The notes beneath the pieces were generated by a model, which saw only the letters and a list, made by a program, of their open reading frames with translations, was not told the origin of the DNA and made no database searches. Positions 14,536-43,627 of a DNA stretch of 44,499 nucleotides are shown here, in pieces (positions within the stretch are counted from its first letter, which is position 1; each line of letters starts with the position of its first letter). A program made the position numbers and the translations under genes. The stretch comes from Anaerolineae bacterium (GTDB lineage: Bacteria; Chloroflexota; Anaerolineae; Aggregatilineales; UBA3940), in NCBI GenBank assembly GCA_016927375.1, contig JAFGMS010000157.1, positions 1 through 44,499 of the forward strand, in the 5' to 3' direction.

Positions 14536-16416
14536 TTACCTGCTGCCGACCCACCCCGGCAGCGTGCTGCCTCGATGATAGACCCACCACTCAACAACCA
14601 GAACCGCCAATGCAGCGGCAGCCAGCCAGGGCCATAACTCACGCTGGCCATATTCATCGCGTTCCTCCTTGCCGCTGATCGCCGTCTGACCGACCGTAAT
14701 CGAATCGGCGGGGGTGATGTGGCTCTCGGCGGGTGAGAAAAGGTTCACGGCGAAAGCCGCACTCGTCTCGACCTGCGTACCACTGACCAGCTCTACCTGG
14801 TAGATGCCCAGCTGCGTCGTCGCCGAAAAAGACAAGGGCACCTCGCTCACCGGGAATGTCTGCACGGCGCTATCAGGCAGAGTGATCCGGTAGCCGCTGG
14901 TGTCGGCTTGAGCACGGATGGCTATCGGTTGGCCCGGCCGCAGGCCATCCGGTGCGTCGAAGGGCTGTGATGGCGAATACCACTCCAGCAGGTTGGCAAC
15001 CAGGATCGGGAAATCGATCCGCAGCGGCAGATCGGAGGCATGCAAATCGAAGGTCAGGATGGCAACACGCCGACCTGCCACGGTCCCAACCAGCAACAAA
15101 GGCCCTCCCTCAGCATCGACCAATGCTTTGGCCCAGCCAGGCGTTTGCACCGGCGTCGCCTCGCGAACGGCAACCGGCTCAAAATCCACAAAAGCCAGAA
15201 TGGGATCATCGACCTGACGGACAAAGCGGGTATCGGTGAACTTCTCTCCCACAGCAAACAAATCGGTGCTGTTCGGCGGATTGATGATCAGGAGGTTGGT
15301 TTCAGGGAGCTCCTCAGGCAGCCAACCATCGAGCACCACCAGATCGAACCGCTCTTGCGGCAGCTCGCCGGGCGTTGCGCGGAAAGCATTCAGCGTGGGG
15401 AAAGCCGAAAAGACCTGCTGCAAAAACAGGTTGCTCTCGGTGACAATCAAGACTTGCCCGCTCACAGGCGGCGTATAGACGGCATAAGCCACGTCGTCCA
15501 CCGGCAGATAATCGCTGCCACCACCTTCGACGGGCGCGCTCAGCGAGGCCCTGATAAGCCGGGTCGAGGAAGGCAAATCCGTGATGGTGCGGTTGGCCGT
15601 CTCGCCCGCCGGAACACTCAGCCGCTCAGCAGACAGCAGCTCGCTGTCCACCTCCAGACTGAGGATGATGTCGGCATCTTCAGTTCCGGTATTGGTAACG
15701 GCCGCAAACAGCTGCGGCCTGTCGTCCAATGGGCGGGTGGCCAATGCCGATATGGCCAGGTTCGACGAACGCCTCCCAACCTTTATGTAGCGCACCGGGA
15801 CAGGCAGCGCGGGCAGATTGGTAGGCAGGCCGCCGTCAGAGATAATCACGACGCTGGCCTGCTCCCGCCCGGCGATGCTTGCTCCGGCCAGCGCCAGCGC
15901 GGCCTCCCAATCAGCCGGAGCCTGGGTGGGCTCTGCCCGGTTCAGCGCCGCTCGCAGCACGGTCTGATCGCCGCTGGGCGGGCTGATGACATTCGGCGTT
16001 GGTCCAACTGTGATGATGGTCATCACCTCATCGCTGGCCAGATCACCAATCAAAGCTCGCGCCTGGCTACGGGCGGCGTCAAAGCGCGTCGCCCCGCCCG
16101 TCATATCGGCAGCGTTCATGCTGGCAGAAGCATCGATGAGCAAAGCAACACTGCCGGCTGCCACACTGGGGATCGGGATGAACGGCCGGGCCAATGCGAT
16201 CACCAGGGCAGCAAGGATCAGCAGCTGAAGGATCAGCAGCAGATTGCGGCGAAGCTTCTGCCAGGGCGCATTGGCCTCCCGGTCTTGCATCAGACGCCGC
16301 CACAGCATAATGCTGCTGATCGGCACTTCACGGCGGCGCAGACGCAGCATGTAGAGGATAATGATGGGCACCGCCAGCGCCGCCAGAGCGAGAAAAGTTG
16401 GCGTGAGGAAATTCAT
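14536..16416 (-). CDS. BatA-like vWA-domain membrane protein
   Basis: Aerotolerance-regulator-type N-terminus MNFLTPTFLALAALAVPIIILYMLRLRRR, a second TM, MIDAS VALLIDASASM, and a C-terminal TM. Confidence 0.8.
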   Translation of the reverse strand: MNFLTPTFLALAALAVPIIILYMLRLRRREVPISSIMLWRRLMQDREANAPWQKLRRNLLLILQLLILAALVIALARPFIPIPSVAAGSVALLIDASASMNAADMTGGATRFDAARSQARALIGDLASDEVMTIITVGPTPNVISPPSGDQTVLRAALNRAEPTQAPADWEAALALAGASIAGREQASVVIISDGGLPTNLPALPVPVRYIKVGRRSSNLAISALATRPLDDRPQLFAAVTNTGTEDADIILSLEVDSELLSAERLSVPAGETANRTITDLPSSTRLIRASLSAPVEGGGSDYLPVDDVAYAVYTPPVSGQVLIVTESNLFLQQVFSAFPTLNAFRATPGELPQERFDLVVLDGWLPEELPETNLLIINPPNSTDLFAVGEKFTDTRFVRQVDDPILAFVDFEPVAVREATPVQTPGWAKALVDAEGGPLLLVGTVAGRRVAILTFDLHASDLPLRIDFPILVANLLEWYSPSQPFDAPDGLRPGQPIAIRAQADTSGYRITLPDSAVQTFPVSEVPLSFSATTQLGIYQVELVSGTQVETSAAFAVNLFSPAESHITPADSITVGQTAISGKEERDEYGQRELWPWLAAAALAVLVVEWWVYHRGSTLPGWVGSR

Positions 16417-16468: not shown

Positions 16469-16867
16469 TCAGCCTTCATTGCTCGTTGCTCGATCAGTGA
16501 TATTACCTTCCAGCTTGACCGACACAACACGGTTTTTCTCATCGAGCACCAGGACGCGCGGTTCCCAGCCAGCCGGGGGCGGAGCGGAAACCTGGGCAAA
16601 GGCCATGATGATGACACGGTCGCCCACGCTGACCAGCCGGGCTGCTGCCCCGTTAAGCTGTATCACTCCAGAGCCAGGCTCGCCGGGAATGATATAGGTC
16701 TCGAAGCGTGCCCCGTTTTCTATGTCGACCACCAATACCTTTTCGTACGGATACATACCGACCTGATCAAGCAAATCGGTGGCAATGGTGATGCTGCCAA
16801 CATAATCCAGGTCCGCGCCGGTAACCCGCGCCTGATGCAACTTCGCTTTCAACATCGAAACATACAT
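16469..16867 (-). CDS. panD: aspartate 1-decarboxylase (pyruvoyl-dependent)
   Basis: MYVSMLKAKLHQARVTGADLDYVGSITI aligns with E. coli PanD [28 protein letters not shown], including the Gly-Ser self-cleavage site. C-terminal extension present. Confidence 0.92.
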   Translation of the reverse strand: MYVSMLKAKLHQARVTGADLDYVGSITIATDLLDQVGMYPYEKVLVVDIENGARFETYIIPGEPGSGVIQLNGAAARLVSVGDRVIIMAFAQVSAPPPAGWEPRVLVLDEKNRVVSVKLEGNITDRATSNEG

Positions 16868-16899: not shown

Positions 16900-16923
16900 T
16901 TTTGATCCACGAATTCCACGAAG
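16900..16923. repeat. left arm of inverted repeat flanking the GxxExxY gene
   Basis: TTTTGATCCACGAATTCCACGAAG. The 12-nt perfect core GATCCACGAATT (16904-16915) is the reverse complement of 17347-17358. Confidence 0.75.
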
Positions 16924-16942
16924 AACACTAATTATGATAATT

Positions 16943-17314
16943 TCACAGGATAATACGTTTGAAACGCAGGCTGCTCTCGCCAAAGTTCATCAACAGTCCC
17001 AAACGAAGGCCGCTGGCTTTGAGGTAGGATAAAACCTGGGATTGATGAACTTTGGCCAGCGTGTCCACAGCTTTCAACTCAACCACAATCTTGGTATCTA
17101 TTACCAGATCGAGGTAGTAGTCTGCAACAACAAGCTCCTTGTAGATTATCTGGATATGTTGCTGAGAAACAAACGGAATATCCAGAATACTCAACTCCCC
17201 TTCCAGAGCAGCCTGATACACATTTTCAGAGAAACCAGGGCCAAGTATCTTGTGCACTTCCATGGCCGCTCCAACCACATTGTAGACCAGGTCTTTGTAC
17301 AGCAAGTCGGTCAA
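16943..17314 (-). CDS. GxxExxY family protein (PD-(D/E)XK nuclease-like fold family)
   Basis: GPGFSENVYQAALEGEL carries the GxxExxY signature, followed by ...DLVIDTKIVVELKA. 123 aa. TTG start. Lower GC than neighbours. Confidence 0.85.
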   Translation of the reverse strand: MTDLLYKDLVYNVVGAAMEVHKILGPGFSENVYQAALEGELSILDIPFVSQQHIQIIYKELVVADYYLDLVIDTKIVVELKAVDTLAKVHQSQVLSYLKASGLRLGLLMNFGESSLRFKRIIL

Positions 17315-17339
17315 GGTGAAATTCCTTTAATTTGTGCCA

Positions 17340-17363
17340 TTTGTGAAATTCGTGGATCGAAAA
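17340..17363. repeat. right arm of inverted repeat flanking the GxxExxY gene
   Basis: Reverse complement reads ATTTTTCGATCCACGAATTTCACAAA, matching 16900-16923 apart from 1 indel and 2 mismatches. Confidence 0.75.
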
Positions 17364-17364
17364 A

Positions 17365-18330
17365 TCACCGCACCACGCCTGCACGGCGGAGGGCGAACAG
17401 GATGACATCCTCCCAGGGTGTGCTGGTCTCCATGGCTACATAGTGCACATCACGCCCAAGGCAGTAAGAAGCCATCTCGCTGCGCCACTCACGCAGCCGG
17501 CGAGCATACAGATCGCGCATAGCACCATCCACGGTCACATCCTGGCCGGCCCCTGTCTCGCTGTCGATCAAGCGGATATCGCCCACCACCGCCGGTTCTA
17601 CTTCGTCGGGCGAAAGCAGATGCAGGATGGTCACCTCGTGGCCCCGGCCCTGCAATGCATTGAGCCCATCACGGTATCCGCCCGGCGAGAGCATATCACC
17701 GATCAGCAGCACCAGCCCGACCCGCCCACCACGCACGGCATAATCGGCCAGGGCCGCGTTGAGATCGGTCGTGCCGTCTGTTTGCAGATGCTCCATCCAG
17801 GTCAGCATCGAGAGCGTCTGCCCGCGCCCGCGCACAGGTCCCCAACGGTCAATCACCCGAGCACCGGCAAGCAGGCTCACCGAGACCCGGTCACCGGTCG
17901 TGAGGCCGATATGCGCCAGCGCCGCTGCCAGCCGCACGCCGTAGCGGAACTTGTGTACATCGACAACTGAGGCAGCCCGCCCCACCCCACCCATGCCATC
18001 GAGCGGCCAATTCATCGACTCGCTGGCATCGAGCAGAACATGAACGGTGAGATCCTCTTCTTCTTCCAGCAGCTTGATAAAGGGTTTCTCCAGACGCGCG
18101 TAGACATTCCAGTCGAGCCGCCGCAAGTCGTCGCCACGCGTGTAGTCACGATAGTCGGCAAACTCGATGGAGGTTCCCTTTTTTACCGATCTGCGCTCGC
18201 CCTTAACCGCCCCGGCACGAACCTTGTGGGCGATCAGGCGCAGCTGCTCCAGCTTGCGCAGTGTCGTTTCATCGAAAAGGCGCTCAGGCGGCATCAATTC
18301 CACCACAGAAAGTGATCGGTACACGGACAA
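17365..18330 (-). CDS. DUF58 domain protein (vWA-like, MoxR partner)
   Basis: Family motif GTSIEFADYRDYTRGDDLRRLDWNVYAR plus the MIDAS-like VLLDASESM. TTG start at 18330 (GTG at 18324 also possible). Confidence 0.85.
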   Translation of the reverse strand: MSVYRSLSVVELMPPERLFDETTLRKLEQLRLIAHKVRAGAVKGERRSVKKGTSIEFADYRDYTRGDDLRRLDWNVYARLEKPFIKLLEEEEDLTVHVLLDASESMNWPLDGMGGVGRAASVVDVHKFRYGVRLAAALAHIGLTTGDRVSVSLLAGARVIDRWGPVRGRGQTLSMLTWMEHLQTDGTTDLNAALADYAVRGGRVGLVLLIGDMLSPGGYRDGLNALQGRGHEVTILHLLSPDEVEPAVVGDIRLIDSETGAGQDVTVDGAMRDLYARRLREWRSEMASYCLGRDVHYVAMETSTPWEDVILFALRRAGVVR

Positions 18331-18637: not shown

Positions 18638-19636
18638 CTAGGATGTAGTAACGCTCTTGAGCAGTTCCACGATCACATCGTCCGGCTTGACGCCCTCAGC
18701 CTGACCTTCGAAGTTCAGAAGCAGCCGGTGCCGCAGAGACGCCGGAGCGACTGCCTGAACATCCTCGAAAGCGACATTGTAGCGCCCATCGAGCAATGCA
18801 TTGACTTTGGCACCCAGGATCATGGCCTGAGCGCCGCGCGGGCTCGACCCATAACGCACATAGCGGCGCACCATCTCCGGCGCGCCATCCGACTCGGGAT
18901 GAGTGGCCACCACCAACCGGGCGACATATTCGTTGACGTGGGTGGCAATCGGCACCTTGCGTGCCAGCGCCCCCATCCTGATGATCTGCGATCCCTCGGC
19001 AGCCAGGCCAGCGCGCGCCTGTACGCCGCCGGTCGTGCGGGCCAAAATCTCGATCAGCTCGCTCGATGAGGGAAACAGCACGTCGATCTTGAACAAGAAA
19101 CGGTCGAGCTGGGCTTCCGGGAGCGGATAGGTTCCCTCCTGCTCAATGGGGTTCTGAGTTGCCAGCACAAAGAAGGGCTCTTCCAACTGATAGGTGCGGC
19201 CAAAGACCGTCACTGAATGCTCCTGCATGGCCTCCAGCAGCGCCGACTGCGTCTTGGGGATAGCGCGATTGATCTCATCGGCCAGGACCAGGTTGGCAAA
19301 GATCGGCCCGGGCAGGAAAGTCCGCACCTTGCTGCGGCCGTCCTCCGAATCCTCGAAAATATCCGTACCGGTGATGTCGGCAGGCATCAGGTCAGGCGTA
19401 AACTGGATGCGTGAAAAACGCAGGTTGAGCACATCAGCCAGCGTTTTGATCAGCATGGTCTTGCCGAGACCCGGCACACCTTCCAGGAGAGCATGTCCTC
19501 CGGCAATGATGCACACCAGCACGTGGCGGACAACTTCCTGCTGCCCGACAATCACCTGCCCAACCTGTTCCTCAATGGCCGCTGCCGTCTCGCGAAATTC
19601 GGCGGGCGAGATATCTTCCATCACCATATCTGACAT
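18638..19636 (-). CDS. MoxR-family AAA+ ATPase
   Basis: Walker A GVPGLGKT, Walker B LVLADEINRA, ...ATQNPIEQEGTYPLPEAQLDRF (MoxR signature). Start taken at MSDMVMED (19636) with GGAAGGA upstream; the tracked ORF extends to 19669. Confidence 0.92.
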   Translation of the reverse strand: MSDMVMEDISPAEFRETAAAIEEQVGQVIVGQQEVVRHVLVCIIAGGHALLEGVPGLGKTMLIKTLADVLNLRFSRIQFTPDLMPADITGTDIFEDSEDGRSKVRTFLPGPIFANLVLADEINRAIPKTQSALLEAMQEHSVTVFGRTYQLEEPFFVLATQNPIEQEGTYPLPEAQLDRFLFKIDVLFPSSSELIEILARTTGGVQARAGLAAEGSQIIRMGALARKVPIATHVNEYVARLVVATHPESDGAPEMVRRYVRYGSSPRGAQAMILGAKVNALLDGRYNVAFEDVQAVAPASLRHRLLLNFEGQAEGVKPDDVIVELLKSVTTS

Positions 19637-19659
19637 GATTATGTTTCCTTCCCAACATG

Positions 19660-19687
19660 GTAGGGGCACGATATATCGTGCCCCTAC
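19660..19687. repeat. 28-nt perfect palindrome (REP-like)
   Basis: GTAGGGGCACGATATATCGTGCCCCTAC is fully self-complementary. Lies between the stop of the 545-aa gene and the MoxR start. Confidence 0.9.
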
Positions 19688-43518: not shown

Positions 43519-43580
43519 CAGAGAGCGCAAAGATCGCGGAGGAAATCGAGAAAAAAACTCTGCGAGCTCGGCGCTCTCTG
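43519..43580. repeat. long imperfect hairpin (REP-like)
   Basis: CAGAGAGCGC (43519-43528) pairs with GCGCTCTCTG (43571-43580), with inner partial pairing CGCGGAG/CTCTGCG. Produces the spurious peptide SASSALSAV. Confidence 0.7.
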
Positions 43581-43627
43581 CGGTGAATCTATGGGCACAT
43601 CCAAAAAAGGCGAAACTACAGAACATC

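Follow-up and report, generated by a model that had tools for sequence, protein, structure and literature searches.

A GxxExxY nuclease-fold gene between inverted arrays of 9-nt units that recur as dispersed gene-less palindromes

Introduction

The GxxExxY proteins (PF13366) form a family that is very common in prokaryotes. In the window (the whole 44,499-nt stretch of DNA that was analysed), a small gene of this family lies inside an operon, closely bracketed by two inverted repeats. Why does the gene stand there, and what do the repeats have to do with it? The preliminary description of this DNA took the gene and its repeats for a selfish or mobile cassette inserted into the operon, or alternatively for a gene isolated on the transcript by a long stem. 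The question is addressed here at the locus itself, in 41 relatives, and at GxxExxY loci from many phyla.

Results

Architecture of the locus

The genes of the locus all lie on one strand and are tightly spaced, and the operon of this family is MoxR-DUF58-BatA. The features are, in order of position:

14536 to 16416, minus strand: BatA/vWA gene, same operon
16469 to 16867, minus strand: panD (aspartate 1-decarboxylase), downstream neighbour
16900 to 16946: downstream arm, reading outside-in TTTTGATC and then three 9-nt units
16908 to 16914, 16917 to 16923 and 16926 to 16932: units of the downstream arm, CACGAAT, CACGAAG and CACTAAT
16943 to 17314, minus strand: GxxExxY / PDDEXK_3 gene, 123 aa, TTG start
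17316 to 17362: upstream arm, in minus-strand order TTTCGATC, three units and TAAAGGAATTTCAC
17354 to 17348, 17345 to 17339 and 17336 to 17330, minus strand: units of the upstream arm, CACGAAT, CACAAAT and CACAAAT
17322 to 17328, minus strand: predicted ribosome-binding site of the GxxExxY gene, AAGGA-type, from direct reading
17365 to 18330, minus strand: DUF58 gene, conserved upstream neighbour
18638 to 19669, minus strand: MoxR gene, same operon

The dominant inverted pair found by a repeat search of the locus was formed by 16900–16946 and 17316–17362, two arms of 47 nt that are 77% complementary and 369 nt apart. As an ungapped inverted repeat this pair scored 19.5. The null distribution consisted of 3000 random pairs of 60-nt windows taken at equal spacing from the source genome, and the maximum among these was 12.5, with 0/3000 reaching the score of the arms. 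The inverted repeats of about 22 nt that had been described at 16900–16923 and 17340–17363 are real, with matches at 20 of 24 positions, 12 of them in an uninterrupted core (GATCCACGAATT), and the true arms are longer than that description gave. It also lacked the structure within the arms, each of which consists of three tandem CACGAAT-like units of 9 nt following an outer TTT(T/C)GATC end.

Exactly one gene lies between the arms, as had been claimed, in the form of a single ORF on the minus strand (16943–17314). The arms meet this gene closely at both ends: the innermost 4 nt of the downstream arm overlap the stop codon region, and the predicted ribosome-binding site falls within the inner end of the upstream arm (TAAAGGAATTTCAC), about 8 nt before the TTG start. 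The lower GC content reported for the gene and its arms (the cassette) was also borne out, at 43.8% compared with 55.9% for panD and 62.1% for DUF58. The statement that the cassette fills the whole DUF58-panD spacer holds for nearly all of it, but not all, because 32 nt, in which the ribosome-binding site of panD lies, separate the left arm from the start of that gene (16867). On the other side the right arm adjoins DUF58, as described, with slightly different limits; the arm ends at 17362 and the stop codon occupies 17365–17367.

A scan of the locus for promoters and terminators gave nothing beyond chance. A weak terminator-like hairpin at 17366–17388 (minus strand), formed by the last DUF58 codons with the outer arm end as its T-run, was within shuffle expectation. 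At the ends of the arms, TGATCCACG and TTATCCACG look like a DnaA box; this interpretation was rejected as a general one, since other cassettes use unrelated units.

A minimal Cas4/RecB-like protein

The product of the gene matched TIGR04256 over profile positions 2–116 of 116 (E = 2e-40, 137.7 bits against a cut-off of 35) and PF13366 with similar strength (E = 2e-38, 132 bits against a cut-off of 22). The Pfam and NCBIfam searches of the gene returned PDDEXK_3 and GxxExxY only, with no GIY-YIG (cd10448) and no Y1 (HUH) match. Among 10 sequences of 42–72% identity, E19, D69, E79, K81 and Q93 were invariant and Y97 nearly so; E / D / ExK / QxxxY is the pattern of RecB-family nucleases. The predicted fold order was H-H-E-E-E-H-E-E, with a pLDDT of 90.7 for the AlphaFold model, and the E / D / (D/E)xK residues sit on the predicted alpha-beta-beta-beta-alpha-beta core by which the PD-(D/E)XK superfamily is recognised. 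A sequence search of the PDB detected no solved structure for this protein. The best structural matches to the model were Cas4 SSO0001 (4ic1), MGME1, lambda exonuclease, RecE and the nuclease domains of AdnAB/AddAB, with a TM score of about 0.6 (normalised to the query) for the core fold match to Cas4/RecB-family nucleases. Of these, Cas4, MGME1, lambda exonuclease and RecE act on single-stranded DNA or DNA ends. Model and motif together indicate that the GxxExxY protein is a minimal Cas4/RecB-like PD-(D/E)XK nuclease with a predicted intact catalytic site.

Cas4 proper carries a four-cysteine Fe-S cluster and is found in a CRISPR-cas neighbourhood. The GxxExxY protein has the core fold and the E...D...ExK and QxxxY motifs in common with the Cas4 / RecB family, but it is about half as large as these enzymes, and none of its 123 residues is a cysteine; it is therefore not Cas4 proper and has no Fe-S cluster. 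Its neighbours here are MoxR, DUF58, panD and BatA, with no CRISPR or recombination genes among them. PADLOC returned only marginal Cas4b-like matches (E = 0.009 for Cas4b) and a PHROGs search no match, and no defence-system or phage family claims the protein.

It had been suggested that paralogues in the source genome would reveal whether the repeats go with the gene. A tblastn search of this genome gave 2 hits in total, the second being a relative of 40% identity on contig C311. With this one other GxxExxY, itself disrupted, such a check has little to work on, and a large in-genome paralogue family was discarded as an idea. The C311 paralogue (about 79–575) lies at the contig edge and is interrupted near codon 95 by an insert of about 130 nt, after which the frame resumes as ...YRLGLLVNFGKEKL. 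The insert resembles a repeat that is also present on C94 (AGTACAGTTGGG...CCCAACTG).

An old insertion into the operon

Cassettes at the same locus were found in nine genomes from eight genera. GxxExxY lies between DUF58 and BatA in G004, G008, G012, G014 and G018. The gene order is DUF58-GxxExxY-panD-BatA in the source genome and DUF58-panD-GxxExxY in G021 and G022, and in G010 extra DNA follows GxxExxY at the DUF58 locus. The congener G001 retains only a remnant, in which the arms are degenerate and the gene is reduced to its final ~50 nt, and the relative G020 is cassette-free, with DUF58 and BatA about 7 nt apart.

The same-locus GxxExxY proteins are 61–80% identical to one another (mean 0.71), compared with 71–89% (mean 0.76) for the adjoining DUF58, and GxxExxY at other loci is only 36–49% identical to the protein of 16943–17314. 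The closest pair for both proteins is formed by the congeners G004 and G022. Pairwise identities of GxxExxY and DUF58 correlate weakly and not significantly (r = 0.30), because the genera radiate in a star-like manner and only the congeneric pair is informative. The source genome has one intact copy of the gene, and genomes carry 1–3 copies. No movement of the cassette was seen among these genomes, only decay, in the form of the G001 remnant and of one frameshift each in the G012 and G021 copies. Direct repeats flanking the arms, as a target-site duplication would leave, were absent from six orthologous cassettes.

The cassette is thus an old insertion into the MoxR-DUF58-BatA operon, with which it has been passed down in at least eight genera. 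Such a pattern marks a gene of long residence, mostly vertically inherited and sometimes lost, rather than a recent arrival. Of the mobile cassette first proposed, the discrete unit added to the operon remains, as the spacing of about 7 nt in G020 illustrates. A recent insertion is contradicted by same-locus copies in eight genera at 61–80% identity, next to DUF58 at 71–89%.

Several observations concern the surroundings of the cassette. panD is a variable insert in the DUF58-BatA spacer, with a position relative to the cassette that differs between genera; in G004, G008, G012 and G018 it is not next to the cassette, and BatA follows directly. The panD of G021 is preceded by a gene-less arm pair (about 110 nt inside) and followed by an empty palindrome. 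Between G004 (L008) and G022 (L010), identity is 92.5% for DUF58 together with the DNA upstream of it and 76% for the adjoining GxxExxY; the upstream arms adjoining GxxExxY are nearly identical, and flanks at other loci are 71–92% identical, mostly <85%.

Dispersed gene-less copies

The source genome (G000) is an assembly of 5.04 Mb in 547 contigs with 54.7% GC and 87% completeness; since it is fragmented and repeats lie at many contig ends, the copy numbers given for it are lower bounds. A fuzzy search together with an nhmmer profile found ~28 significant arms at ~18 loci. The unit-pair pattern CCACNRATNNCACNRAT had 29 exact matches, compared with none for the reversed pattern (range of this control, 0–2). 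Most copies are compact, imperfect palindromes of ~75 nt (on C113, C126, C345, C355, C434, C456, C458 and C528), and the rest are single arms. In the loops of the gene-less copies on C434 and C355 stands the string AATTAAA(A)GGA, which is similar to the inner end of the upstream arm. About 15 further loci belong to a second subfamily, whose terminus is TTCAAACCAC and whose units are of GAT type.

Nearly all copies are intergenic, lying between a few and about 100 nt from ORF ends. At C113 4363–4438 a palindrome reads in frame through an ORF of 592 aa resembling a membrane protein, and at C471 10571–10604 a single arm lies in the linker between the two UvrA-like halves of a 1668-aa ORF. Several copies (for example on C38, C104, C345, C456 and C470) have the conserved motif (A/T)AGCGTTAACTTAAGATCAGAGA ~10 nt outside their TTTTGATCCAC end, so the dispersed unit may be larger than the palindrome.

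The gene-less elements turn over. Between the source genome and its congener G001, where intergenic DNA is about 80% identical and too diverged for precise insertion boundaries, one orthologous single arm (C281) is conserved and one element is present in G001 only. Of the sites that could be compared between G004 and G022, two have a gene-less element in G004 and none at the orthologous position in G022, gain and loss being indistinguishable, and others are occupied in both genomes. At these G004 and G022 sites, with diverged flanks of about 78% identity, no boundaries or target duplications were visible.

Concerted evolution of the arms

Every same-locus copy checked, five intact ones in other genera (G004, G008, G010, G012 and G018), was found to have a three-unit arm pair of its own, with arms of 29–38 nt that are 82–89% complementary and 389–410 nt apart. 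The spelling of the unit depends on the genome, being CACGGAT in G010, CACAGAT in G012 and G004, and CACGAAT in G018 and G008. The two arms of one genome have remained more similar to each other than to arms of other genomes: arm-arm identity was 0.82 within and 0.72 across genomes, and 0/265 derangements reached the observed mean. The dispersed copies are spelled like the cassette of the same genome, mostly CACGGAT in G010, mostly CACAGAT in G012 and mostly GATCCACGAAT in the source genome.

Co-occurrence of gene and repeats

The CAC..AT pattern has a background of 0–2 copies in 28 genomes and reaches 6–170 in 12. At least 6 CAC..AT arms were present in 10/11 genomes with the cognate cassette, compared with 2/30 without it (Fisher P = 6e-7), and at least 6 arms of a second unit family, ACCRCNRAG, in 6/6 with its cognate cassette compared with 8/35 without (P = 7e-4); the 41 genomes are phylogenetically related, so that these P-values are optimistic. 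The Y1 transposase (PF01797) had no such association, since at least 6 arms of either family were found in 16/32 genomes with it and 3/9 without (P = 0.47), and G022, which has the most arms (170), has no Y1 transposase. The genome-specific spelling extends to the second family, G032 having 94 copies spelled ACCACGGAG, like its own cassette. The possibility that the repeat is a common REP unrelated to the gene, which had been named as a refutation, holds as far as a common dispersed palindrome goes; co-occurrence with the cassette and shared genome-specific spelling link the repeat to the gene.

The gene itself is patchy, occurring in 15/41 relatives with some copies decayed, and the match between gene and repeats has exceptions. 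Repeats occur with no detectable GxxExxY gene in G003 (43 + 28 arms), G001 (10 + 15) and G031 (13), and G018 has an intact cassette and essentially no dispersed copies. For the largest array family of the source genome (82 arms, CGCAGAG type) the assembly offers no intact cognate gene, the sole candidate being the disrupted copy at the edge of C311. Protein and repeat are linked by correlation.

Arrays of CGCAGAG type (ACCGCAGAG-NN-CGCAGAG) occur at 43567–43584 (minus strand) of the window and at about 70 other loci of the source genome. Many of these arms are found at contig ends and within composite repeats of the form AATGCGCCC..GAAAGCTGTTTC, arm, ...CCAAAGCGGGAATTGCTG.

The design recurs across the GxxExxY family

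GxxExxY genes at unrelated loci in the relatives also have arms, of 28–51 nt with three units each, among them CGCAGAG, CACGGAG, CGCCAAG, CACAGAG, CGCGAAT and ACGGAT. A cross-phyla survey covered 76 usable loci from many phyla, obtained by a related-locus search in which the nearest named records were Anaerolineales and Anaerolineae MAGs; control windows were displaced by 450 nt, and an inverted repeat was counted at a score of at least 14. A flanking inverted repeat was found at 48/76 GxxExxY loci (63%) compared with 3/141 control windows (2%). The self-period of the arms was 9 nt in 31/50 arms and 8–10 nt in 44/50. The arms are a hallmark of the GxxExxY family, not of the DUF58-panD site.

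Discussion

Comparison with known systems

In the RAYT systems, the transposase gene is single-copy, vertically inherited at a stable locus, and flanked by inverted copies of a dispersed palindromic repeat. The GxxExxY gene is likewise a single-copy gene flanked by inverted copies of a genome-dispersed repeat. Its inheritance across eight genera and the genome-specific spelling of its repeats also resemble the vertical inheritance and co-evolving repeats of RAYT/REPIN, with correlational support. The RAYT/REPIN system, or REPtron, consists of REP-associated Y1 (HUH) transposases and their REP doublets (PMC3733652). The enzyme here is not of the Y1/HUH type, PF01797 genes being located elsewhere and uncorrelated with the repeats, and the arms have no GTAG or CGTC tag.

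SsnA is a GIY-YIG single-stranded-DNA nuclease with flanking and dispersed NTS/SRM hairpin repeats (PMC11893778). As in Ssn/NTS, a small single-domain nuclease gene has inverted repeats of 20–50 nt on both sides, and these repeats are dispersed, co-occur with the gene across genomes and come in lineage-specific variants (PMC11893778). The fold here is PD-(D/E)XK of the Cas4/RecB type, whereas theirs is GIY-YIG (cd10448); the arms here consist of three 9-nt units, whereas theirs form one hairpin with a conserved upstream tag; and copies here number from tens to about 170, compared with hundreds. In the Ssn system the nuclease cuts, in single-stranded form, the repeat that flanks its gene; by analogy, the arms would be the putative substrate of the GxxExxY protein.

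Insertion sequences and MITEs offer a further likeness, in the terminal inverted repeats around a single gene, the many short gene-less copies and the nested insertions; short copies also differ in presence between congeners, gain and loss being indistinguishable. In contrast to such elements, there is no recognised transposase fold, no target-site duplication was seen, and the gene copy is single and syntenic across genera. The arrangement is best filed with the known kind in which a small nuclease gene is flanked by its own dispersed repeats, differing in fold and in its unit-array arms. In the literature searched, we found no description of GxxExxY flanks or of a nuclease-repeat architecture for GxxExxY.

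A proposed pairing of resident nuclease and repeat substrate

The explanation we put forward, with about an even chance of being right, is a resident nuclease flanked by its own putative repeat substrate, in the manner of Ssn/NTS or RAYT/REPIN. That such a nuclease would read its own arms is suggested by the phased arrays, whose form is kept while their sequence is not, by a clan acting on single-stranded DNA or DNA ends, and by the co-occurrence of gene and repeats. On this view the arrays would be recognised by the protein, most probably in the form of a hairpin extruded from cruciform or single-stranded DNA, and each phased 9-nt unit would engage one protomer. Cutting at arrays would create, maintain or spread gene-less copies. 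The gene would thereby stand between two copies of its own substrate, like SsnA between NTS and RAYT between REPs, and the flanking arms may tie its expression or persistence to nuclease activity.

Two alternatives concern what moves the repeats. The cassette might be an autonomous selfish element, whose own nuclease moves gene and arms and whose MITE-like deletion derivatives are the gene-less palindromes. Terminal inverted repeats around one gene are indeed IS-like, the GC of the cassette is below that of its neighbours, its position relative to panD varies between genera, and its patchiness (15/41 relatives, with decayed copies) would suit such an element, as would the AATTAAA(A)GGA kept in the loops of gene-less copies, which recalls the inner end of the upstream arm with its putative ribosome-binding site. 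We nevertheless consider it improbable: genomes have only 1–3 gene copies, single-copy synteny at the same locus in eight genera fits poorly, the mean identity of 0.71 is near the 0.76 of DUF58 with the same closest pair for both genes, and neither a target-site duplication nor identical copies at different sites were found. Just as unlikely, in our view, is that the gene is a passenger, a lodger in the loop of a hairpin spread by other machinery, with a function unrelated to the arms. Arm pairs do take up other DNA, since a MITE of ~190 nt with CTCGACTTTGCACAT ends lies inside arm pairs at C211 19346–19697 of the source genome and on C87 of G001, CACGAAT palindromes are nested in CACAGAT palindromes at at least six G004 loci, and G003, G001 and G031 keep repeats but no detectable gene. 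A mere lodger, however, leaves unexplained both the 63% versus 2% association of arms with the gene across phyla and the differing units of different cassettes, each in agreement with the dispersed repeats of the genome concerned, and the obvious alternative mobiliser, the Y1/RAYT transposase, does not co-occur with the repeats.

The arms might instead act on RNA, as a stem of ~45 bp whose cleavage by RNase III, or whose protection of the mRNA, would uncouple the gene from its neighbours DUF58 and panD; the dispersed copies would then be transcript hairpins with a REP-like role as stabilisers or terminators. A gene-isolating stem, the alternative raised in the preliminary description, could physically form, since the minimum-energy fold (−166 kcal/mol, z = −5.6) has the arms paired around the whole ORF; the close spacing of the same-strand genes and the co-evolution of the two arms also speak for it. 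The types of mismatch lend it no support, however, as G.U-compatible mismatches number 52 in the sense and 43 in the antisense orientation (P = 0.41) and transversion mismatches are common. A plain stem, moreover, needs no 9-nt tandem units, yet these are kept across phyla while the sequence is not; gene-less copies elsewhere are left unexplained; single arms are conserved alone, such as that on C281 and its G001 orthologue; and an Rfam search gave no family match. As the main explanation an RNA-level device is quite unlikely, the least probable of those weighed here, and it could coexist with the resident nuclease reading its arms.

Implications

A wider form of the nuclease-substrate explanation is possible and is put forward only tentatively. 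GxxExxY and the unit-array palindromes may be a third, independently evolved partnership of nuclease and repeat, present in many prokaryotic phyla, in which a Cas4-like nuclease of ~125 aa would read phased 9-nt units, drift in specificity with the repeats of its lineage, and generate or police gene-less hairpins. If so, nuclease-plus-repeat systems that shape bacterial genomes would include a third enzyme fold, a very large protein family so far without a function would gain one, and nature would have supplied a set of small nucleases that differ in sequence specificity.

The hypothesis that the GxxExxY gene is flanked on either side by the substrate of its product comes with a comparative series, in which eight genera have the cassette at one operon position, and the unit spelling, and with it that of the dispersed copies, is particular to each. 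Experiments on cross-specificity between protein and arm are therefore straightforward to design.

Other repeats in these genomes

An arm pair at C211 19346–19697, with about 350 nt inside, was considered as the carrier of a second cargo gene and rejected, the inside being a MITE with CTCGACTTTG... ends that is repeated elsewhere. This MITE-like family of ~190 nt has (A)GCTCGACTTTGCACAT ends and an internal GGATTCCCGCTTTCGCGGGAATGAC hairpin. Copies were seen on C248, C498, C512, C188 and C211 (19380–19660) of the source genome and on C87 of G001 (L049 1450–1640), two of them exactly in the loop of CAC..AT arm pairs.

In G004, CACGAATG palindromes are nested in CACAGATG palindromes at six or more loci, in the order +AGAT +GAAT −GAAT −AGAT (for example C10:65494–65651, C15:94031–94171, C18:38077–38231, C24:57441–57593 and C30:83948–84089). 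The nested composite of G004 is itself dispersed in G022.
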